This document shows positions 3,547-37,259 of a stretch of DNA of 39,928 nt, piece by piece. Source of the stretch: a virus (lineage: Duplodnaviria > Heunggongvirae > Uroviricota > Caudoviricetes); the IMG/VR virus record IMGVR_UViG_2526164663_000052; one strand, written 5' to 3'. The notes below the pieces were generated by a model. The model ran no database searches. It saw only the letters and a program-made list of their open reading frames with translations, and was not told the origin of the DNA. Positions within the stretch are counted from its first letter, which is position 1. Every line of letters starts with the position of its first letter. The position numbers and the translations under genes are program-made.

Positions 3547-4479
3547 ATGACTGATATTAACGATGTAATCAAGACCATTGATGAACTTATTGATGGCGGC
3601 GTACTGACGCAGTATGCCATCGCCAGAGAGGCGGGAATTTCCGACGGCACATTATCGGCTTTCCGTAAGGGAAAATATAAAGGCGATAACGCTGCTGTGG
3701 CTGCTTCCCTGCGTTCCTGGTATGAGAACTGGAATAAACAAAGCGCACTGCCGGAACCGCCGCAGTTTGTGGAAACGCAGACAGTCCAGGAGCTGCGCGC
3801 ACTGTTTCAGGCGGTTCGTCTGATGGGCTGTATTAACGTTATTGTGGGCGTACCGGGTGTGGGTAAAACGGCCACTGCCCGTAATTACTGCCAGGAGCAA
3901 CCAAACACCTGGATGATCACCCTGTCACCCGCGCACTCTAGCGTCACGGAGTGTCTGCTGGAGCTGGCCGATGCGCTGGGGATTGATTACACCCGCGCGA
4001 ACAAAGGGGCATTATCCCGCGCCATCCGCCGTCGCCTAATGGGAACGCGTGGACTGGTGATTGTGGATGAGGCGGATCATCTTGGTATTGACGGTCTGGA
4101 GCAACTCCGGGCAATTCAGGACGCCACGGGGATCGGGATGGTGCTTATTGGTAACCCGCGCGGATTGTTTAAAGGTGGACGCCGCGCCTTTGATGATTTA
4201 TCGCGCCTGTTCAGCCGTCTTGCCCGTACAAAACAACTTCGCAAGGCCAAAAAGGCGGATGTGCTGGCCATTGCCAGGGCGTGGGGGATCAGTGGTGAGG
4301 CCGAGCTGGCCGTCATGCAGGCTATCGCTGAAAAGCCGGGAGCGTTACGCGTTCTGACACATACGCTTAACCAGGCGTGGCTCACCGCCAGCGGTGAAGG
4401 CGCGGCGCTGACAGAAAAACATATTAATGCGGCCTTTAAAGAGGTTTATACCAACCCTGAATTACTCTCACAGGTGTGA
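3547..4479 (+). CDS. Transposition ATPase / target DNA activator, MuB-like
   Basis: 310 aa with Walker A GVPGVGKT and Walker B VIVDEADHL. Shares LPEPPQFVETQTV and KPGALR blocks with Mu B as I recall it. Confidence 0.9.
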   Translation: MTDINDVIKTIDELIDGGVLTQYAIAREAGISDGTLSAFRKGKYKGDNAAVAASLRSWYENWNKQSALPEPPQFVETQTVQELRALFQAVRLMGCINVIVGVPGVGKTATARNYCQEQPNTWMITLSPAHSSVTECLLELADALGIDYTRANKGALSRAIRRRLMGTRGLVIVDEADHLGIDGLEQLRAIQDATGIGMVLIGNPRGLFKGGRRAFDDLSRLFSRLARTKQLRKAKKADVLAIARAWGISGEAELAVMQAIAEKPGALRVLTHTLNQAWLTASGEGAALTEKHINAAFKEVYTNPELLSQV

Positions 4480-8790: not shown

Positions 8791-9161
8791 GAAAAATCAC
8801 GTCCTTGTCAGAGTTACAGGAGATGAATATGAGTATTGAATTAAGATCGTCTTATGAGTATCGCAAATTTCTTATCGCCGGAGGCATGAAACCGGAAGAT
8901 GTGGAAAAAATCGTTTCTTTTATGGATAAGGAATGTGATAAGCGGGATGTGTCAGAAATTATTATGGATGACATGATTCTGGATTCAGTCGTGGCGTTAA
9001 GTCCGTTATGGATTGTGCATTCTCTTGCGGAAATTGCCAAAGGCACCGATAAACAGGCAGCTGTTGCTGCCCTTCAGACGCTTAATGAAATGCGTATATC
9101 TCCACGCCCGACATTAATACAGATGATTTTGTCCAGTATGGAGGATAAAGCAAATGAATAG
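8787..9161 (+). CDS. Hypothetical protein
   Basis: 124-aa ORF; reads as AT-rich; no family recognised. Confidence 0.45.
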   Translation: MRKITSLSELQEMNMSIELRSSYEYRKFLIAGGMKPEDVEKIVSFMDKECDKRDVSEIIMDDMILDSVVALSPLWIVHSLAEIAKGTDKQAAVAALQTLNEMRISPRPTLIQMILSSMEDKANE

Positions 9162-9351
9162 TCTACCCGCTGGATGGGCGCGCCCTCTGATGGCTAAGAA
9201 GCATCATTTTTTTAAAACTGGCGATAATATCAGTATATGTAGGCGGTGGTTATATCTGGCTCATAATCGCGAGCCGGATACATTTGAAAGCCCTGATGAC
9301 TGTGCCGAATGTCGCAGAAGACTGAATAAGGAGAAAGATAATGGACAATAG
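9154..9351 (+). CDS. Hypothetical small Cys-containing protein
   Basis: 65 aa with C..C...C..C spacing at the C-terminus; possible zinc binding. Confidence 0.35.
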   Translation: MNSLPAGWARPLMAKKHHFFKTGDNISICRRWLYLAHNREPDTFESPDDCAECRRRLNKEKDNGQ

Positions 9352-9637
9352 TTCTCTGTTGTTCTGGTGCTTATATATCACATCCTTTTTCGGCGCATTT
9401 GTTATTACCCGGTGGTTATGTCGAAAAATCATCTGCTTTTTTGATAAAAGACATCCGGTTGAACGGGCGGCTGATGCGCTCATTCAGCAGGCCATTGTGT
9501 TATATAGCGGTGAATTTTTCTGCCGGATAACAACCAGAGATGGCTGGCACATAATGATTATTCCACCAACACACCATGCCCGGTGGGATGAGGCAGAAAA
9601 GGCTTTCCATGTCCGTAAAAAGGTAAATACGGTATGA
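9341..9637 (+). CDS. Hypothetical protein with N-terminal transmembrane segment
   Basis: 98 aa; hydrophobic N-terminus LLFWCLYITSFFGAFVI. Confidence 0.4.
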   Translation: MDNSSLLFWCLYITSFFGAFVITRWLCRKIICFFDKRHPVERAADALIQQAIVLYSGEFFCRITTRDGWHIMIIPPTHHARWDEAEKAFHVRKKVNTV

Positions 9638-10143
9638 GAGGAAAACTGATATCCGCCATTCATGTGGCAAAGCGCGAGCTTGCCCTGGATGATGAGACTT
9701 ATACATCCGCGCTGCTGGCAGCCACCGGCAAAACCAGCTGCCGGGATATGTCACCGGATGAGTTATCCCGCGTGCTGGATGTTTTCAAAAAACGCGGTTT
9801 TAAAGTGCGTCAGAACCCGGTTAACCGGGCCTTAAAACCGGGTACGGTGACCGCCAAAATTCGCGCCATCTGGAAGGTGATGCACCGGCAGGGCTTTATC
9901 TCTGATGGTGCGGAAACCGCCCTTAACCGCTGGGTGAAATCGCAGACGGCCGCGCAAAACGGCGGCGAAGGTGTGGCAAACTGGCAGTGGCTGGAGCAAC
10001 ACCCCGCCCTGGCCTCAGATGTGCTGGAGCGTCTCAAGCGATGGCACCGCCGCAAAATGCTGGCCGCGATGGGAATGCCCGAACGCACGCTGATGGGGTA
10101 TGACGCCGTTTGCAGGCAGTATGAAAAATCACTTCCCCGTTAA
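9634..10143 (+). CDS. GemA-like (Mu gp16 family) regulatory protein
   Basis: 169 aa, immediately upstream of mor as in Mu. Family assignment is by position and general resemblance. Confidence 0.55.
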   Translation: MRGKLISAIHVAKRELALDDETYTSALLAATGKTSCRDMSPDELSRVLDVFKKRGFKVRQNPVNRALKPGTVTAKIRAIWKVMHRQGFISDGAETALNRWVKSQTAAQNGGEGVANWQWLEQHPALASDVLERLKRWHRRKMLAAMGMPERTLMGYDAVCRQYEKSLPR

Positions 10144-10212: not shown

Positions 10213-10638
10213 ATGGCAGAAACTCAGATGAGCATGTTTGGTGGTGACAGTGAGCAACTGCACGCCCTTATCGACCGCCTTGATGACATCCCTGATGATG
10301 TTCTCAAAAAGAACTGGCCGCGGACCCTGTCAGAACTGGTTGAAGTCACCGGCGCAGAACTTCAGCGTCAGGGGATTGAGCCGGTACTGGCCGGTAAACT
10401 GGCACGCAAGGTGGCTGCGGCTCAGGCAGCCTATATGGGCGGACGGGGTTATTACCTGCCGGTCGGGGAATCTCTCTTTGCCGAGCTGCGAAACAATGAG
10501 ATATTTTCGCGCTGGGACCGGGGCGAGAAAATTGAATCCCTTCGCCGCCATTACCGGATGTCAGAAACCCAGATTTATACCGTCATACGCGAACAGCGCC
10601 GTCTGCATCTGGCAAGAACGCAACCGCCACTTTTCTGA
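10213..10638 (+). CDS. mor: Mor/C-family transcriptional activator
   Basis: 141 aa; C-terminal HTH region (YRMSETQIYTVIRE) and overall layout resemble Mu Mor/C. Only one homolog is present. Confidence 0.75.
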   Translation: MAETQMSMFGGDSEQLHALIDRLDDIPDDVLKKNWPRTLSELVEVTGAELQRQGIEPVLAGKLARKVAAAQAAYMGGRGYYLPVGESLFAELRNNEIFSRWDRGEKIESLRRHYRMSETQIYTVIREQRRLHLARTQPPLF

Positions 10639-17839: not shown

Positions 17840-17960
17840 CGGTCAGTGGCGGGGGTCGAACCCGCATACATGATCCACCCGGAGGCAGGCACCGACTTTA
17901 CCAGTTAAGCGTACACTGACCGCCTGCTTATTTTATATTCATATTTTATACGGAGGCAAT

Positions 17961-21531: not shown

Positions 21532-22088
21532 TTACGGAAACCGAACAGGCATACATCGCCCGTATCCGTGAGTATTTCGGGAATGAACTTGTGTCTGTTG
21601 ACACGCATCCCGGCGACTGGAGCGACGGCGTACTGCGCAGCATGCTGATTAACGCCCCGGCGATCTACGTTGCCTGGCTGGGTGCCGGTGAAGGCCGTAC
21701 CCGTGGTCGCCTGGTCAGTCACTGGGTGTTCTACGTCATCGGCGACATGCTCAACGGGCGTGAGGCCAGCCGTCCCGGACTGTATCAGATTGTGGCCCGG
21801 CTGATTGCCGTGCTTAACGGCTTCAGAACAGAAAAAACCTCACCGCTTTACTTTGAAAAGGCTGTCAACGGTTACACCGAAACCCAGGCGAACAGTGGTG
21901 CGGTGATGTATGCGCTTTATTTCTCCTGCGAGGAAATGATCGCACCACTGACCGATATCAGCTCGCTGGATGATTTCCTGCGTCATTACGAAACCTTTGT
22001 GGAGCCGCCCGGTACGCCGCCGTTTGAGGCACATATTGATTTGCCGGGGAACACGACAACGGCGGTCGAACCGCCGGAGGAACTGTAA
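21528..22088 (+). CDS. Mu gp37-like protein
   Basis: 186 aa; assigned by position. Confidence 0.5.
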   Translation: MITETEQAYIARIREYFGNELVSVDTHPGDWSDGVLRSMLINAPAIYVAWLGAGEGRTRGRLVSHWVFYVIGDMLNGREASRPGLYQIVARLIAVLNGFRTEKTSPLYFEKAVNGYTETQANSGAVMYALYFSCEEMIAPLTDISSLDDFLRHYETFVEPPGTPPFEAHIDLPGNTTTAVEPPEEL

Positions 22089-22334
22089 ATGAAAACCATC
22101 TTTATCAAACCCGCGCCGGGACGCCTGATTCGTGATCCCGACACAATGCGCCCGCTGGCACAGGAGGGGGAGGAAAAGCCCTTTACGCCGTTCTGGTGTC
22201 GGCGTCTTGATGACGGCGATGTCATTCAGGCTGAAAAAGCCGCTGAAGAGGCTCCGGCTGTATCTGCGGATGCAACGACTGCGACAGAAAAACCGGTCGC
22301 CCAACCGGCATCCGATAAGGAGAAACCGCAATGA
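22089..22334 (+). CDS. Mu gp38-like small protein
   Basis: 81 aa, immediately upstream of the sheath gene. Confidence 0.45.
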   Translation: MKTIFIKPAPGRLIRDPDTMRPLAQEGEEKPFTPFWCRRLDDGDVIQAEKAAEEAPAVSADATTATEKPVAQPASDKEKPQ

Positions 22335-30377: not shown

Positions 30378-31459
30378 TGCCTTATCAGCCCTTACCACTG
30401 GCGCAACTGATCACACAGACACAACAGGATATCAGCCAGCGCCTGCCCGGTTCGCAGCCGGGCGTGAATGAAACCACCCTGAATGCCATTGCGTATGCAC
30501 TGGCGGGTCTGTCAGCACAGGAGCATGAACATCTGGCCTGGATCTCCCGGCAGATAATTCCGACAGAAGCTGATGAAGCCGAACTCCTGAAACACTGCGC
30601 ATTCTGGGGTGTCATCCGTAAACCGGCTTCCCGCGCTGACGGACCGGTACAACTGATGCTGACCACGGATGCAGGGATCACGGAAGGCGTACTCCTTCAG
30701 CGAAGCGATGGTGTTGTGTACCGCATCACCGGCTCTGCGACCGGAAAAGCCGGAACACTGAATGTTAATGTGGAGGCGGAAAGTGCGGGGCGCGCTGGAA
30801 ATACCCCGACCGGAACCCGCCTGTCCTTTATCACGCCACAGGCGGGCATCAACCAGACAGCCACGGTCACCGGCACGGGACTCACCGGTGGTGCGGATGT
30901 GGAAACGGTGCCGGAGTTGCTGTCCAGGCTGGTATTCCGGGTACAGAACCCGCCATCAGGGGGAACACAGTATGATTTTGAACGCTGGGCACGGGAAGTA
31001 CCGGGCGTGACGCGGGCATGGTGTAAGCCTGAATGGCCTGAGGCGGGTAGTGTTGGTGTGACTTTTGTTCAGGATAATAACCCTGACATTTTCCCCGGAG
31101 AAGGTGATGTGAAGCGGGTGGCGGATTATATCCGCAGTCATGATGATCCGGCGACGGGCCAGCCCGTTGGTCAGCCACTTGGGCCGACAATCAGCGTGTT
31201 TAAGCTGACCAATAAGCCGGTGGCGTTTGAGATCAGGATTGTACCCAAAACGCCGGAAAATCAGGCTGCCGTAAAACAGGCATTAACGGACCTGCTTTAT
31301 AACGAATCGCGGCCGGGTGGACTTGTATTGCCTTCATCATTCTGGCGGGCTGTTGCAGGGGTGAAAGGACTGGAGGATTTTGAAGTTCGCAGCCCGCTGA
31401 AGTCCGTGATGGCCGGAGATACAGAGTTGCTGACCGTGGGGGAAATCACATGGCTGTAA
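30374..31459 (+). CDS. Baseplate J-like protein (Mu gp47-like)
   Basis: 361 aa in conserved position. Confidence 0.75.
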   Translation: MMPYQPLPLAQLITQTQQDISQRLPGSQPGVNETTLNAIAYALAGLSAQEHEHLAWISRQIIPTEADEAELLKHCAFWGVIRKPASRADGPVQLMLTTDAGITEGVLLQRSDGVVYRITGSATGKAGTLNVNVEAESAGRAGNTPTGTRLSFITPQAGINQTATVTGTGLTGGADVETVPELLSRLVFRVQNPPSGGTQYDFERWAREVPGVTRAWCKPEWPEAGSVGVTFVQDNNPDIFPGEGDVKRVADYIRSHDDPATGQPVGQPLGPTISVFKLTNKPVAFEIRIVPKTPENQAAVKQALTDLLYNESRPGGLVLPSSFWRAVAGVKGLEDFEVRSPLKSVMAGDTELLTVGEITWL

Positions 31460-32010
31460 CCCTGACCCCGCATCAGCGTGCCCTGTTGCAGTTGCTGCCT
31501 GACGGGCTGGCATGGGATAAGCGGCCGTCATCCGTTCTTGCGGCTTTGTGCCTGGGCCTCAGTCATTCCACGGAGCGTGTTTCCTGGACCGGTAACCAGA
31601 TGCTGGCAGAACGTTTTCCTGATTCATCCCGTCTGCTGCTGGAAGACTGGGAGCGTTATCTGGGGTTACCGGAATGTGATATGACCGGCGCAACCATTCA
31701 GGAGCGTCAGCGTTATGCCGGGAATAAATACCGGATGAAACCCTCTCTTAACCGTGAATTTTATATCCGGTTTGCGGCAGAGTTTGGTTATGAAATAGAT
31801 ATTCAGCCATCACCGGATTCACAGTGGGTCAGTATTGTCACGATTAACAGTGAAACCGGCTACCGGAATATGAATGTGCTGGATGATATTCTCACCCCGC
31901 TGCGTATTTATGAGGGTGGTGCGCTGGAATGTATTCTGAACCGTTATAAGCCTGCATGGCAGACGTTTATTTACGTGTATGCAAACAGCCATGAAGAGGA
32001 GACTATTTAA
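31450..32010 (+). CDS. Tail protein, Mu gp48-like
   Basis: 186 aa immediately upstream of the tail fibre gene. Confidence 0.65.
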   Translation: MAVTLTPHQRALLQLLPDGLAWDKRPSSVLAALCLGLSHSTERVSWTGNQMLAERFPDSSRLLLEDWERYLGLPECDMTGATIQERQRYAGNKYRMKPSLNREFYIRFAAEFGYEIDIQPSPDSQWVSIVTINSETGYRNMNVLDDILTPLRIYEGGALECILNRYKPAWQTFIYVYANSHEEETI

Positions 32011-32921
32011 TGTTTCATGTTGATAATAATTCCGGCGTGGCGAATATGCCTGCGCTGGCACCGGCGCAGAGTAATACCACCACCTGGTTTACCGAAGGTG
32101 ACGGACAAAAAGGTATCAGCTGGATTGGTCAGGACTGGCTGAATATTCTCCAGGCCGAACTGCTGAATATTCTGGCTGAAGCCAGTATTCAGCCGGATAA
32201 GGCGCAGTTAAACCAGCTTACGCTGTCCATTAAAGCCATTATCGCTGCGAATGCCTTTTCCCGGAAAAACAACCTGAAAGAAATTGCTGATGCCGGTGCG
32301 GAAGCCCAGCGTCTTGCCCGTGGTTATCTTGGTCTTGGGGCGCTTGCCACAAAAAACAGTCTTGGTCCCGGTGACGTTAATGCTCTGGCGAAGGATCAGA
32401 ACCTTGCCGACCTGGAGAATGCGGGAACCGCCCGTAATAATCTGGATGTTTACAGCAAAAGCGAAGGTGATAACCGTTACCTGCGCAGGGAGCAGAACGG
32501 CGCAGACATTCCGGATAAAGGCGCTTTTATCGATAACGTCGGTTTACGGGAAACGGTAAATAAGGCTGCTGATGCCCTGCCATCGGGTGGAACCGCCGTG
32601 GCAGCAAACAGACTCGCCACCCCAAGAAATATTAATGGCGTTCCTTTTGACGGAACGCAGGATATCAACATCACGTCAGGAATGACGCAGTCAACCGCAG
32701 ATGGCCGGTATGTACAGAATGTTCAGCTTGGAGCACAGAGCTATCATTCACCCGGAGGCAATGAAATATCATGGAATTACAGCGCACCTTCCGGTTGTAT
32801 GCTTTCCGGTATTAACGTGCAGGAAACCGGCTCCCGGTCTGCGGACAATATCGGTGGGGTCTATTATCGCCCGGTTCAGATTTATATTAATAATGCCTGG
32901 AGAACGGTAAGTTCAGTGTAA
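32010..32921 (+). CDS. Tail fibre protein (constant N-terminal part plus current variable C-terminal cassette)
   Basis: 303 aa. The C-terminal ~125 aa is homologous to a second cassette encoded on the opposite strand at 33599..33970. Confidence 0.8.
   Translation: MFHVDNNSGVANMPALAPAQSNTTTWFTEGDGQKGISWIGQDWLNILQAELLNILAEASIQPDKAQLNQLTLSIKAIIAANAFSRKNNLKEIADAGAEAQRLARGYLGLGALATKNSLGPGDVNALAKDQNLADLENAGTARNNLDVYSKSEGDNRYLRREQNGADIPDKGAFIDNVGLRETVNKAADALPSGGTAVAANRLATPRNINGVPFDGTQDINITSGMTQSTADGRYVQNVQLGAQSYHSPGGNEISWNYSAPSGCMLSGINVQETGSRSADNIGGVYYRPVQIYINNAWRTVSSV
32527..32552 (+). other. Left recombination site (gix-like) of the invertible segment, inside the tail fibre gene
   Basis: TTATCGATAACGTCGGTTTACGGGAA resembles the Mu gix site as I recall it, and recurs as an inverted copy at 33947..33976. 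Confidence 0.6.
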
Positions 32922-32931
32922 ACCACAGAAA

Positions 32932-32950
32932 AGGGTGCTGAATGCACCCT
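32932..32950. terminator. Hairpin between convergent tail fibre and tail fibre assembly genes
   Basis: AGGGTGC / TGAAT / GCACCCT stem-loop with a T-rich tract on the minus-strand side. Confidence 0.45.
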
Positions 32951-32955
32951 CTGAA

Positions 32956-33477
32956 TTATTCCGGTTTTTCCGGCCAGGGAATCGCCTGGTAATGCCCCTC
33001 ACTGGCAATATCATTAAAGTGCATTTCTTTAAGCTGTCGGATATACGCCATCCAGCGCGTCAGCTGTAATTTATTTTCATCGCTAATCATGTCCAGTTTT
33101 AATTCTGTTTTCCAGTCATCCACGGTTTCGTTGGCTTCCTGGAGCAGCGATGAGCGACGCTTTTCAGCAACCGTCTTCCAGTTTACCGGCACCTTTGATA
33201 TCAGGCCATCAGAAAACTGCCAGTTACCGTCAATATTCACACCTTCCGGCAGTTCGTCCACTTCAACAACAGTAAAACCTGCCGGATATAAAGCAGAGAC
33301 ATCTTCAGCAACAGAGCAGATAATACCCGTTACAGGCGAAATACAGAGTTTGTATTTCTTTGTGAAAAGCGGGATAGATTCATAAAAATCCCTTCCGTCC
33401 TCACTCTGGAAATACTGAACATCCTCACCATAGGGTTTGTCTTTCGGGTAATATCGTTTGACATTAATCAGTTGCAT
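32956..33477 (-). CDS. Tail fibre assembly chaperone (Tfa, Mu U / P2 G-like)
   Basis: Start taken at the internal ATG (MQLINVKRYYPKDKP...). The C-terminus (...HYQAIPWPEKPE) resembles phage tail-fibre assembly proteins. The track ORF has an AT-rich, implausible N-terminal extension. Confidence 0.75.
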   Translation of the reverse strand: MQLINVKRYYPKDKPYGEDVQYFQSEDGRDFYESIPLFTKKYKLCISPVTGIICSVAEDVSALYPAGFTVVEVDELPEGVNIDGNWQFSDGLISKVPVNWKTVAEKRRSSLLQEANETVDDWKTELKLDMISDENKLQLTRWMAYIRQLKEMHFNDIASEGHYQAIPWPEKPE

Positions 33478-33598
33478 AAACATCACCATGTAAATCAATG
33501 ATAAAAACAGGAATAATACTATCGCCATATACAGGCAATGCTTGTCTGAAATAACGCATATTTCAGATGCTGGCTGCTGTGTGCTATGCCCCCGTTAA

Positions 33599-33970
33599 TT
33601 AAATACTTGCAGCGGATACCCAATGCCCATTAATACAATATTGTATCTGTCTGTAATAAACACGGTCATCACCACCACGCATTTCCCAGTCTCCGTCAGT
33701 CTTAAAACCGGTAATCACATTTCCTGATGACAGGGAGTAATTATATTCCAGTCCGCCGCTTAATGCCTGCGCTCCCAGTCTTACCCCTGTAACATAACGC
33801 TGATTGGCCGTTGATTCCGGCATTCCTGACGTAATGTTTATATCCTGCGTGCCGTCAAAGGCGACACCATTGATTCTGCGGGCATTTGCCAGCCTGCTTG
33901 CTGCAACAGCCGTACCGTTTGATGGCAGGGCATTCGCGGCCCTGTTTACCGTATCCCGTAAACCGAGGTT
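33599..33970 (-). other. Alternative tail fibre C-terminal cassette, with no start codon of its own (expressed only after inversion)
   Basis: The minus-strand frame is open from 33970 to the stop at 33599. It translates to GLRDTVNRAANALPSNGTAVAASRLA...NGVAFDGTQDINITSGM..., parallel to GLRETVNKAADALPSGGTAVAANRLA...NGVPFDGTQDINITSGM... in the + strand fibre. Confidence 0.65.
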
Positions 33971-33976
33971 TCAGGG
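33947..33976 (-). other. Right recombination site (gix-like) of the invertible segment
   Basis: Inverted copy of the TCGGTTTACGGGA-ACGG core (one mismatch), followed by a further ~30 bp of imperfect inverted homology. Confidence 0.6.
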
Positions 33977-34032
33977 ATGCCGTATATCTGCTTTAAAAGG
34001 CTTTTCCACCTCTTTTTAAGGAAGGTAAATAC

Positions 34033-34593
34033 ATGCTGATTGGCTATATACGCGTATCAACAAATGACCAGAACACCGGTTTACAAAGAAATGCGCTGGA
34101 ATGTGCAGGATGTGAGCAGATTTTTGAAGACAAAATGAGTGGTAAAACGACACAGCGGCCGGGACTGAAGCGGGCACTGAAGAAACTAAAACCCGGTGAC
34201 ACGCTGATGGTCTGGAAACTGGACAGGCTGGGGCGCAGTATGCGCCACCTTGTTGCGCTGACAGATGAATTACAGCAACAGGGGATAAATTTTCGTAGTC
34301 TTACTGACAACATTGATACGTCAACCCCCATGGGGCGCTTCTTTTTTCACATAATGGGTGCGCTGGCAGAAATGGAGCGTGAATTAATTGTCGAACGGAC
34401 ACGGGCTGGTCTTGCAGCAGCCCGTGAAAGGGGACGAACCGGCGGCAGACCCCGCCGTCTCACGCAGGAACAATACGAGCAGGTCGGGCGTTTACTGGCC
34501 GGGGGTGTCAGTCGAAGACAGGTGGCACTTATTTTTGATATCGGTCTTTCAACCCTTTATCGTTATTATCCTGCGAGCGTTTCGGAAAAATAA
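34033..34593 (+). CDS. gin: Serine DNA invertase (Gin/Hin/Cin family)
   Basis: 186 aa; N-terminus MLIGYIRVSTNDQNTGLQ with catalytic-serine context, C-terminal HTH; lies next to the invertible segment. Confidence 0.9.
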   Translation: MLIGYIRVSTNDQNTGLQRNALECAGCEQIFEDKMSGKTTQRPGLKRALKKLKPGDTLMVWKLDRLGRSMRHLVALTDELQQQGINFRSLTDNIDTSTPMGRFFFHIMGALAEMERELIVERTRAGLAAARERGRTGGRPRRLTQEQYEQVGRLLAGGVSRRQVALIFDIGLSTLYRYYPASVSEK

Positions 34594-34692
34594 GACGCTC
34601 CCTTTGTTGGGCCTTTACTGAATTAACGCAAAATGGCGTTTATCGGTCTGTGGATATGATAATTCAGTTTATTCAGGAACAGGCTGATTATT

Positions 34693-36741
34693 ATGACGTC
34701 CAAATGGGTTCAACTATCATCAATGCCCGGAAACTTTACTGTTAAAGTTTCCGGTGGTACAGCGGCATTTCTTGAGGCTCCCTTTCCTCCGGCCGAAACA
34801 AAAGGAGGAATGACATTTGCTGACTGTCTCATCAGTTTTAATACACAGGATTGCCTGTGGGTAAGGCCAGTATCCGGTGATCCGAACGTGGAAATTACCG
34901 GAGCGGGTATTGGTGCTGTCATTCCGTTAAGTGCTGATGTTGCCGGTACTACTGAACCGTCAGACTGGGATAATGCAGAAACACATACCCGTCCGGCAGG
35001 AAATGAAACGGCTTCCAGCTCCCCTTCCTGGTATTACGTGATTGTTATAGCCGGCCAGTCCAATGCTTCATCTTATGGTGAAGGGTTGCCCCTTCCGGAT
35101 TCTTATGATCGTCCTGATCCACGTATTATGCAGCTGGCACGCAGGAATACACAAACCCCCGGAGGTATTCCCTGCAAATACAATGAAATCATTCCAGCAG
35201 ATCACTGCCTTCATGATGTTCAGAATATGAGTCTGCTGAACCATCCAAAAGCAGACCTGAAAAAAGGGCAGTATGGTTGTGTGGGGCAGGGACTTCATAT
35301 TGCGAAAAAAGTATTACCGGTGATTCCTGCTGATGCCGGGATTTTACTGGTTCCCTGTGCCCGTGGCGGCTCTGCTTTTACAACCGGCGCAGTTGGCTCA
35401 TTCGATCCGGCAAGTGGTGCAGCCGAGGCGTCACTACGCTGGGGAGTGGATACCCCACTGTATCAGGATCTTGTCAGTCGAACTAAAGCGGCACTTGAGG
35501 CGAATCCAAAGAATGTGCTGTTATCTGTCGTATGGATTCAGGGGGAAGGAGACCTTAAAGCGACCCCGGCCCAGCATGGTGCCCAGTTTACTGCGATGGT
35601 GAAAAAATTCCGTGCGGATCTTGGTGCTTTCTCCGGTCAGTGTATTGGTGGTTCATCAGACAGTGTGCCGTGGTTATGTGGTGACACAACCTATGACTGG
35701 AAAGAGAAGAACCCGGCGGCATATGAAACCATTTATAGCGGATATAAAAACCGGGCTTCCGAGAACATTCACTTTGTTCCACTGATGCACGATGAGTTCG
35801 GTAATAAAACCGCGACCAACCTGCCGGAGCACGACCCGGATATCGCTTCTGCCGGGTATTATGGTGCGGAATCACGGGGAGATGGCAACTGGACAACAGC
35901 ATCCAGGGCAACCCATTTTAGCTCCTGGGCGCGCCGTTTTCTGGTCTCAGATCGTTTTGCATCAGCAATTCTTAAATATGCAGGTCTGACCTCTGCATTT
36001 ATTGCCGGTGTGGCCCCTGATGGTGAAGCCCTGCCTCAGCCCGCGCCGGGTGGGAAACCGGAAGCGCCGACAGGTAGTCAGCCAGGAGGCAGTGAGTCCC
36101 CCCATCCGACATCCCCGTCACTCCGTACGCTGCTTTCACTTAAAGCATCAGCAGGAGAAGCCCCGGCTCAGGGCTGGAAAATTACAGATGGTACAATCCA
36201 GCTGACGGACGAAGGTAAAGCGTTGACCGTATCCAAACAAAGCGGAAAAACCTGGACGCTTACCCATGGAACTGATGCAGCCGGTGAACTTCTGAAGCAT
36301 GGTGGTCAGTTGACCTGTAAATTCCGTCTGTCAGGTGAAGTAAAAGAAGGCCAGTTTGCTCTGGGTATTTACCTCCACACCGATACGGTCCCGGAAGGTG
36401 TAACCATGAGTGGTACAGGCACACCGTTCCTGATGGCGTATTATCTCCAGACAACAGGCGGCCAGTTAAATCTGATGCACCATAAAACAGGGGGGAATAC
36501 GAAACTGGGATCATTTGGAGCCTACAATAACCAGTGGCATACACTTGTCCTGAAGTTTACGGCGGGAAGTGCCCAGGTAACGCCTGTGCTGGATGGCACT
36601 CCGGGCCAGGCATTCCAGATGGTGAAAGATGCACTTTCCCCTGCCAAAGATACGCTGACACTGACAGATGTCACCAAAGGGGCAACTTATGGCGTGTCTT
36701 TTGAGAGCGTTGTCCTTGAGGTTAATACCCCTGCGGCATAA
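34693..36741 (+). CDS. Cargo gene: putative SGNH/SASA-family carbohydrate O-acetylesterase with a C-terminal beta-rich domain
   Basis: 682 aa. VIVIAGQSNASSYGEG (GQSN block), CARGGS and VWIQGEGD motifs resemble the sialate O-acetylesterase (SASA, NanS-type) family. Mu has no gene of this kind between gin and com. Confidence 0.5.
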   Translation: MTSKWVQLSSMPGNFTVKVSGGTAAFLEAPFPPAETKGGMTFADCLISFNTQDCLWVRPVSGDPNVEITGAGIGAVIPLSADVAGTTEPSDWDNAETHTRPAGNETASSSPSWYYVIVIAGQSNASSYGEGLPLPDSYDRPDPRIMQLARRNTQTPGGIPCKYNEIIPADHCLHDVQNMSLLNHPKADLKKGQYGCVGQGLHIAKKVLPVIPADAGILLVPCARGGSAFTTGAVGSFDPASGAAEASLRWGVDTPLYQDLVSRTKAALEANPKNVLLSVVWIQGEGDLKATPAQHGAQFTAMVKKFRADLGAFSGQCIGGSSDSVPWLCGDTTYDWKEKNPAAYETIYSGYKNRASENIHFVPLMHDEFGNKTATNLPEHDPDIASAGYYGAESRGDGNWTTASRATHFSSWARRFLVSDRFASAILKYAGLTSAFIAGVAPDGEALPQPAPGGKPEAPTGSQPGGSESPHPTSPSLRTLLSLKASAGEAPAQGWKITDGTIQLTDEGKALTVSKQSGKTWTLTHGTDAAGELLKHGGQLTCKFRLSGEVKEGQFALGIYLHTDTVPEGVTMSGTGTPFLMAYYLQTTGGQLNLMHHKTGGNTKLGSFGAYNNQWHTLVLKFTAGSAQVTPVLDGTPGQAFQMVKDALSPAKDTLTLTDVTKGATYGVSFESVVLEVNTPAA

Positions 36742-36798
36742 TCGTGACGGCCGGGAATTTATCCGGCTGTAACATCAGTTAATAAGAGTGAGGCTTAT

Positions 36799-36978
36799 AT
36801 GACATATATAAACGTCTGCCTGCTGTATTTCTGCACGGTGGTTTGTTGTCTGTTGCTTGTCAGCGGTGGTTATAAAATTATTCGCAATTATTTTCGAAAT
36901 AAAATTGATGCAGCTGCCGAGGAAAAGATAAAAAGCGGTGCTGTAATGCCGCAGCCGAAAGACTCCGGTCAGATTTAA
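36799..36978 (+). CDS. Small hydrophobic protein (59 aa, below the ORF-track cutoff)
   Basis: ATG 36799 preceded by GAGG; translates to MTYINVCLLYFCTVVCCLLLVSGGYKIIRNYF... (one TM plus a charged tail). Confidence 0.4.
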   Translation: MTYINVCLLYFCTVVCCLLLVSGGYKIIRNYFRNKIDAAAEEKIKSGAVMPQPKDSGQI

Positions 36979-37013
36979 TTTTTTGTGAACCAGAAAAGGA
37001 AAGGAGAATATTC

Positions 37014-37259
37014 ATGCCAGAGATTAAAGGCACGGTTACTGAAGAGCTTGTCAAACAGGCACTTTATTCTGAAGAAGTGAACCGCGTGCTGAAGGCGCAG
37101 GTTCGCAAGGATTTTGAGGCACAAATCGACGCATATGTTGATGAAGTGCTGGCCCGAATGGTTGGTCGTTCTCCGGCTGAAAACAGCACGGAAAATGAGC
37201 CTCAACCCGTAGAGCAACCAGAGCCGGTTCAACCCGGAACTGACGGTACTATGATGTAA
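37014..37259 (+). CDS. Hypothetical acidic protein
   Basis: 81 aa; strong SD AAGGAAAGGAGA upstream; followed by a hairpin. Confidence 0.5.
   Translation: MPEIKGTVTEELVKQALYSEEVNRVLKAQVRKDFEAQIDAYVDEVLARMVGRSPAENSTENEPQPVEQPEPVQPGTDGTMM

Follow-up and report, generated by a model that had tools for sequence, protein, structure and literature searches.

The window analysed here is the whole 39,928-nt stretch of IMG/VR virus record IMGVR_UViG_2526164663_000052, and coordinates are window positions unless another locus is named. It contains an invertible segment of the Gin/gix type (32527-33978, about 1.4 kb), a shortened form of the Mu G segment, in an Escherichia coli Mu-like prophage. This segment carries two alternative tail fibre tips and a single gene, tfa, for a tail fibre assembly (Tfa) chaperone, which probably serves both tips. 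In the present orientation, here called state A, the fibre gene (32010..32921, + strand) is a 303-aa open reading frame (ORF) that matches the PHROG tail fibre family phrog_1833 at 3.4e-166. It is composed of a constant part, Sc (32010-32552, + strand; 181 codons, including the left crossover site), and the tip A cassette (32553..32921, + strand), which encodes the variable C-terminal 122 aa in frame with Sc and has no chaperone gene behind it. The remaining elements lie on the - strand. The tip B cassette (33599..33952), silent at present, is an ORF without its own start codon that comes into frame with Sc after a flip. It is separated from tfa (32956..33477, 173 aa), the sole tail fibre assembly gene, by a non-coding spacer of 121 nt that runs from the tip B stop to the tfa start (33478..33598) and is a candidate promoter or regulatory site for tfa. 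The stop codons of the fibre gene and the convergent tfa are only 34 nt apart (32922-32955). Within this gap, the terminator scan detected a G+C-rich hairpin (32930..32952) that is terminator-like on the - strand, where it is followed by TTTTCTGTGGTTT; the same hairpin is found in a copy from Shiga toxin (Stx) phages (L002) and in an 85%-identical relative (L005).

The segment is bounded by two 26-bp crossover sites that are inverted relative to each other and share a central TC. While the left, gixL-like site (32527..32552) is situated within the fibre ORF, reads TTATCGATAACG TC GGTTTACGGGAA with its central TC at 32539-32540 and aligns to Mu gixL, the right, gixR-like site (33953..33978) has its central GA at 33965-33966, reads ATCCCTGAAACC TC GGTTTACGGGAT as its reverse complement and aligns to Mu gixR. 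Both sites are located at the outer ends of a 179-nt inverted repeat with 75% identity (32535-32713 / 33792-33970). In L005, the arms of this repeat (2651-2800 vs 3900-4050) encode a near-identical peptide, whereas the window arms are only 75% identical, and the arms may have been homogenised in some lineages; the exchange itself requires the 26-bp sites only. Immediately to the right of the segment, a Gin-family serine DNA invertase gene (34033..34593, + strand) encodes 186 aa with matches to Pfam Resolvase (1.4e-51), HTH_7 (1.7e-14) and phrog_125. The protein is 74% identical to Mu Gin and retains the N-terminal YIRVST motif with the catalytic serine, and its 5' coding DNA, where a Fis-bound recombinational enhancer would be expected, is highly conserved with Mu gin. 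Judged by its sequence, the region is a true homologue of the G segment, in that the sites, the invertase and the homology of Sc to Mu S all fit. Inverting the segment in silico at the TC core placed tip B in frame behind Sc and yielded a 298-aa fibre with a co-oriented tfa downstream. The original prediction of a Gin-invertible segment that combines two fibre tips with a single tfa was thus borne out by the ORFs, the Pfam and PHROG matches and the gix-like sites, and the ORF map and the in-silico flip agree with its statement that tfa is now antisense to the fibre gene and becomes co-oriented with it only after inversion.

The identity of the chaperone gene is well supported. Tfa matches Pfam Caudo_TAP (PF02413; 2.4e-18, residues 81-190 of the 190-aa ORF), phrog_136 (1.1e-57) and Mu U (PDB 5yvq_B; 1e-15), and it ends in the C-terminal ...WPEKPE motif common to Mu-type Tfas. 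The start codon was assigned to the ATG at 33477, which has GGTGA just upstream and is also the start chosen by the Prokaryotic Genome Annotation Pipeline (PGAP) in an identical genome. A start at ATG 33528, which would add a hydrophobic N-terminal extension of 17 codons, was rejected: it has no ribosome-binding site, the ATG is gone in L005, and PGAP places the start at 33477. We also considered a hidden second chaperone. The two longest non-fibre ORFs on the + strand of the segment (33089-33385 and 33804-34019), antisense to the genes described above, have no PHROG match, and the former is not conserved in relatives, while a transitive phmmer search with Tfa seeds returned one Tfa in the window and no other. 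The segment therefore has no second tfa, since the 34-nt gap leaves no room for one behind tip A, the + strand ORFs lack PHROG matches, the former being unconserved as well, and phmmer detects a single Tfa. The usual placement of a Tfa gene, directly downstream of the fibre gene and co-transcribed with it, is not found in the window family: tfa is convergent with the fibre gene in state A and 121 nt away from it in the flipped state, state B.

Inversion is evident among natural isolates. E. coli 2014C-3307 matches positions 31400-34700 at 100% identity, and matches to this stretch are present in 798 of 5,426 complete E. coli genomes. The window orientation is present at a coverage of at least 80% in 185 complete E. 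coli genomes, and an in-silico flipped query detects the other state in 27; among the window-type loci of IMG/VR, 22 are in state A and six in state B. In OkiPb01678 and OkiPb01712, which belong to a single Okinawa collection from bovine faeces, the prophage lies at a similar genome coordinate and in opposite states. Moreover, the flipped genome L007 has hybrid half-sites exactly as expected from exchange at the TC core, and the flipped-state fibre is annotated as an intact gene in both L007 and L005. The segment inverts, with both orientations seen (185 vs 27) and hybrid junctions as predicted, so the inverted repeats do recombine.

We then determined how widely the single-tfa layout occurs. 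IMG/VR was scanned with an Sc alignment, window-type loci being those with fibres of 293-322 aa, and exactly one tfa was present in all 28 of the window-type loci that extended far enough to be judged, whereas the Mu-type relatives, together with L129 and L130 (Sc 64-70% identical), have the canonical two-tfa layout. The one-tfa layout is also found in L005 and in L002. A second scan of IMG/VR, where 591 candidate Gin-linked loci exist, was anchored on the invertase. An initial Tfa hidden Markov model missed P2-type Tfas and produced spurious zero-tfa segments, and transitive phmmer detection was used instead. By this approach, about 12-14 of the 49 classifiable Gin-linked segments sampled (about a quarter) have a single tfa, although these fractions are approximate, as the detection is imperfect and may miss divergent Tfas (L082, for example, may have a second). 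A profile search of genome contigs with the Sc alignment gave 5 loci only, too few for a cross-species survey. Across the loci covered, the asymmetry is evidently not a one-off.

Several one-tfa segments outside the window family were seen in these scans. A P2-like segment of 1637 bp is present in both orientations (L036 and L065 vs L067), and further P2-like one-tfa loci in IMG/VR are L025, L031, L033 and L038. One IMG/VR locus, L042, has four tip cassettes and four sites with a single tfa. In Citrobacter braakii ATCC 51113 (L009, 5001-9950), three crossover sites accompany one tfa inside the segment, with a perfect 17-bp hairpin between the convergent genes; beyond the invertase, this locus has a second fibre-like gene with collagen repeats (8934-9896) and a further Tfa-like ORF. 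Judging from gene content, one Tfa must serve several tips in such multi-tip arrays as L042 and L009.

The segment raises the question of how tip A, which has no co-oriented chaperone gene, is assembled. The original prediction had raised the possibility that one tip is chaperone-independent; with tip A as that tip, tfa would serve tip B alone and be silent in state A. This explanation fits the gene order, in which tfa is co-oriented with tip B only, and the P2-like segments contain a tfa-less tip of an unrelated type (...WRVYCAPV) that could be autonomous. It is also compatible with reports that the Tfa of Mu is present in the virion on the distal fibre, where it aids host recognition (PMC9608196, PMC11915804). 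Since Mu Tfa stays on the virion tip, the two states would on this explanation differ in presenting a bare tip or a Tfa-capped one. However, the sequence of tip A argues otherwise. Residues 1-198 of the fibre match Mu S (5yvq_A) and residues 228-302 match Mu S 434-503, so that the last 75 residues of tip A align to the very end of Mu S that is bound by TfaMu in PDB 5yvq; the role of TfaMu at the Mu fibre end is summarised in PMC9608196. The distal domain of tip A, a member of the Mu S/P2 H tip family, is 56-57% identical to SfMu S' and to a P2-like H protein, and the same domain ends the fibres of SfMu S', P2-like H, an Avunavirus, a jumbo Asteriusvirus, a Certrevirus and an Actinobacillus phage. 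In each of the six other phages inspected, this domain is followed by a gene of Tfa size (150-195 aa) that starts 3-18 nt downstream; five of these genes are annotated as tfa, and the sixth, a 194-aa gene in phage 19-1-2, is annotated as hypothetical. A Tfa-independent tip A is unlikely on these priors, because its distal domain matches the Tfa-bound end of Mu S and is followed by a Tfa-size gene in six phages of six.

A natural deletion provides a further view of state A. Seven IMG/VR contigs (L103, L104, L105, L114, L115, L120 and L126) and four complete genomes (E. coli S1-CAM-01-A, JE86-ST02, M3 and M18; L178-L181) share one identical deletion junction. The deletion takes out the right site together with the greater part of tip B and of gin; gin retains about 40 nt of recognisable 3' end. 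In these derivatives, which we refer to as frozen-A, the fibre gene and tfa are permanently convergent. One frozen-A prophage was inspected over its entire length and proved to be a complete Mu-like prophage. In the four complete genomes, the right prophage end adjoins a different host gene each time, namely bcsA, flgL and an hsdR gene, all annotated as truncated, and citF; mouse strains M3 and M18 thus carry near-identical copies at different sites. One deletion at four insertion sites of a transposable phage indicates repeated infection after the deletion, and hence that state A gives infectious particles; the insertion pattern implies independent infections by a phage whose state A would be functional.

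The frozen-A derivatives also bear on whether tfa is used in state A. All 11 copies retain tfa, seven of them checked as intact 173-aa ORFs and four annotated as intact in the complete genomes. The ratio of nonsynonymous to synonymous substitution rates (dN/dS) of frozen-A tfa is 0.11-0.23 at dS 0.11-0.43 among the four variants compared. Because tfa is conserved here although it is never co-transcribed with the fibre gene, in a phage without tip B, it would seem to be needed in state A, where it must be expressed and, most simply, would act as the chaperone of the A-position tip. Silence of tfa in state A is difficult to reconcile with this retention, and together with the Mu S homology and the six phages with a Tfa-size next gene it leads us to consider a chaperone-independent tip A unlikely.

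Alternatively, tip A fibres could be folded in trans by the Tfa of other resident prophages. E. coli strains, especially those that produce Shiga toxin, carry several lambdoid and P2-like tfa genes, the hosts of the window family are often prophage-rich (up to 8-9 matching places per genome), and the closest relatives of tip A pair with Tfas of the Mu U'/P2 G type, which are common in E. coli prophages. Such an arrangement would, however, make the phage dependent on host content, and it leaves unexplained both the selection on the frozen-A phages' own tfa and the conserved one-tfa layout in all window-type loci. We therefore regard rescue by other prophages as quite improbable.

It could also be argued that state A is an OFF state, in which unassembled fibres yield non-infectious particles and only state B is viable. 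The original prediction had likewise entertained that the present orientation is assembly-deficient. Such a view draws on the lack of a co-oriented chaperone in state A and on the lack of a clear tfa promoter in the window. It is contradicted by three lines of evidence. First, between the window and L002, the tip A proteins are 81% identical with dS 1.08, dN 0.107 and dN/dS 0.10, and the comparison with L005 gives dN/dS 0.105 for tip A and 0.16 for tip B; these values indicate that tip A, the tip without a co-oriented chaperone, is under strong purifying selection even at a dS of about 1. Second, state A is the majority state. Third, gin-less frozen-A prophages of full length occupy four insertion sites in four strains, of which M3 and M18 carry near-identical copies at differing sites. 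A non-infectious state A is thus very hard to sustain. Finally, a decayed layout with no functional meaning, in which one of the two tfa genes of a canonical G segment disappeared from a defective prophage, is plausible as an origin in view of the two-tfa relatives L129 and L130 but is most improbable as an explanation, given that one tfa is fixed in all judged window-type loci (28 in IMG/VR, together with the E. coli genomes) and persists with intact ORFs through at least two clearly distinct A-position tip types and their sub-variants, at least three B tips and at least two Tfa types, that the segment still inverts, and that similar one-tfa segments exist in Citrobacter and in P2-like prophages.

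If one Tfa acts on both tips, its type need not follow that of any one tip. The window Tfa type, T0, occurs with B tips 1 or 4, which are 57% identical to each other, while a second type, T1, which is 64% identical to T0, occurs with the A and B tips of the window. Overall, the A tip alongside T1 is 0 or 2 and the B tip is 4 or absent, and among the frozen phages T1 accompanies either of two clearly different A-position tip types. As each Tfa type occurs with two or more tips, Tfa type does not track tip type, and the best-supported reading is that the window-family Tfa would be a generalist. The locus as a whole is strongly mosaic, with different histories for Sc, tip A, tip B, the spacer and the body of tfa. 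L002 shares the Tfa of the window but differs in spacer and tip B, L005 shares the tips of the window and has a Tfa of only 64% identity, and one recombination boundary is located about 40-80 nt into tfa (window 33445-33406).

The spacer between tip B and tfa is a second feature that distinguishes the window family. It is 121 nt in the window, 79 nt in L002 and about 69 nt in Citrobacter L009, compared with 0-3 nt in the canonical Mu and SfMu arrangements. Comparison of the T0 and T1 lineages gives 87-98% identity over the approximately 90 nt that precede the tfa ATG, against 50-72% for the coding sequence. In addition, the spacer contains a palindrome upstream of tfa (33546-33566) with perfect 8-bp arms, CTGAAATA-N5-TATTTCAG, which is unique in the window and recurs in the other Tfa lineage with 1 nt inserted; 17 of 100 shuffles yield one match by chance. 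As RNA, the spacer folds unexceptionally (z = -1.2). In the frozen copies, a TATAAT is present about 100 nt upstream of the tfa ATG in every case, and in L126 it forms part of ATGATA-17-TATAAT reading into tfa. A control region belonging to tfa itself is plausible from these features, and the putative promoter is the weakest link in the model that follows.

Taken together, we consider it probable, on balance, that the Gin-driven tip switch operates with a single Tfa that is shared by both tips, generalist and transcribed separately. The Gin-family invertase recombines the two 26-bp gix-like sites and thereby sets tip A or tip B behind the 181 constant codons, which changes the receptor-binding end of the fibre; the sequence and the natural genomes in both states show this much. 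The single Tfa would act as a generalist chaperone of both tips, its action on tip A being what the frozen-A and Mu S comparisons point to. It would be made from its own transcription unit, independent of the late operon, with a putative promoter in or just upstream of the 121-nt spacer. Tfa would then be available in state A, where its gene is convergent with the fibre gene, as well as in state B, where it lies downstream. With Tfa available in either orientation, inversion would switch the tip only and not the chaperone. A generalist Tfa is a third option next to the two that the original prediction had contemplated, and it appears to be the best fit to the gene layouts and substitution patterns described above.

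Several observations weigh against this model of a shared and separately transcribed Tfa. No convincing sigma-70 promoter was found upstream of tfa in the window, where 9/12 matches occur at chance frequency, and scans of L002, L005 and L009 likewise gave 9/12 matches at chance frequency only. The window spacer does contain a -10-like TATTAT but has no -35. A motif of the Mu C type, TTAT-N6-ATAA, as seen in Mu Pmom, was searched for and not found, and no motif recurs between the tfa spacer and the upstream regions of the com, lys, I and P homologues. A recombination boundary, rather than a regulatory footprint, could account for the sharply conserved spacer, and L002 combines a different spacer with the same Tfa. 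Moreover, recombination with invertible relatives may be the source of the tfa diversity among frozen-A phages, in which case the dN/dS argument would be weaker, and one frozen-A prophage has an IS5 insertion, so that not every copy need be viable. The model may also not generalise to the P2-like one-tfa segments, which have no spacer.

A bolder proposal, which we put forward as doubtful, is that Tfa has been uncoupled from both tip identity and late-operon transcription to become a stand-alone promiscuous chaperone, with the conserved 90-nt block that bears the palindrome as its control region. Such an uncoupled Tfa might be expressed from the prophage and have a second role, for example in host-surface binding.

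The segment is embedded in a Mu-like gene order. The fibre gene and tfa follow the tape measure gene, the DNA circularisation protein gene, baseplate genes, baseplate J and gp48 (YmfQ family), and are succeeded by the invertase, a DUF6645 protein, com and mom. A Mor/C homologue, the late activator of the phage, is encoded at about 10213-10638. A 92%-identical copy lies within two Stx-converting phage records, where it is labelled "inserted Mu-like phage"; this copy, L002 (LC727881.1 / LC727895.1), is inside Stx1a- and Stx2c-converting prophages and gives rise to composite records of about 93 kb. Between gin and com/mom (34693-37050), the window encodes a 682-aa protein that combines a SASA sialate-O-acetylesterase domain with DUF6645 (phrog_143), and small DUF1378 and DUF826 genes come next; Mu and SfMu have nothing at that position. 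We take the SASA, DUF1378 and DUF826 gene set to resemble the NanS-p region of Stx phages. In the related prophage L178, the PGAP annotation includes a 'tRNA-OTHER' (22044-22123, corresponding to about 17840-17960 of the window) that is flanked by a head morphogenesis and a virion morphogenesis gene, and ARAGORN detected no tRNA in the window.

Fibre tips and their Tfa are usually treated, and engineered, as matched pairs, the Mu G segment being the textbook case with two such pairs. The loci described here constitute a widespread E. coli prophage family with a two-tip switch, or a one-tip frozen fibre, and a single convergent tfa. They suggest that the window-family Tfa tolerates tips that are only about 40% identical and is controlled apart from the fibre gene. 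If the bolder proposal of an uncoupled Tfa is true, chaperone-tip specificity would be much looser than the one-tip-one-chaperone rule derived from Mu and P1, and tips would be exchangeable without their chaperones. In host-range engineering, a tip swap without a chaperone swap might work. For prophage annotation, a fibre gene without a downstream chaperone need not be defective, and the layout has a bearing on the evolution of invertible host-range modules. Our literature search returned no paper on unequal tip and chaperone numbers or on the one-tfa layout; the older p15B Min and carotovoricin Er papers and North & Davidson 2021 were outside this search.

Comparing the window with Mu and its relatives D108 and SfMu, it becomes clear that the machinery of inversion is shared. 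The window Sc shares 47-48% identity with the first 175 residues of their S proteins, and the left site is at the position homologous to the Sc/Sv boundary of Mu, between the constant and variable parts of S, where the window codons read FIDNVGLRE and those of Mu FIQNLGLQE. Both systems have 26-bp gix-like sites with a TC core and an invertase of the same kind, and both are set in the context of baseplate J, gp48 and S, then gin, then com/mom. However, the G segment of Mu spans about 3 kb, against 1.4 kb in the window, and encodes Sv-U and U'-Sv', with each tfa 2-3 nt past its fibre gene, whereas the window segment has variable parts of about 120 aa, against about 330 in Mu, and one tfa that is preceded by a 121-nt spacer and is convergent with tip A.

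Likewise, the C segment of P1 with Cin and the P segment of e14 with Pin are switches of the tail fibre C terminus by Din-family invertases, and both have been described with two pairs of fibre tip and tfa. Multiple-inversion fibre regions of the p15B Min type, here the arrays of L042 and L009, resemble the window in having more tips than chaperones, but the window is limited to two tips and two sites. For carotovoricin Er, Nguyen et al. (2001) reportedly described a 790-bp segment with tips only. This contractile tail particle is similar to the window in that an invertase, Ein, swaps the C termini of its fibres (PMC13195805). The P2-like invertible H tips share with the window a single tfa in some Gin-linked segments, with both orientations seen. 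In these segments, however, tfa overlaps the stop codon of the tip with no spacer between them, and the tfa-less tip is of an unrelated sequence type, so the mechanism may differ between the P2-like segments and the window.

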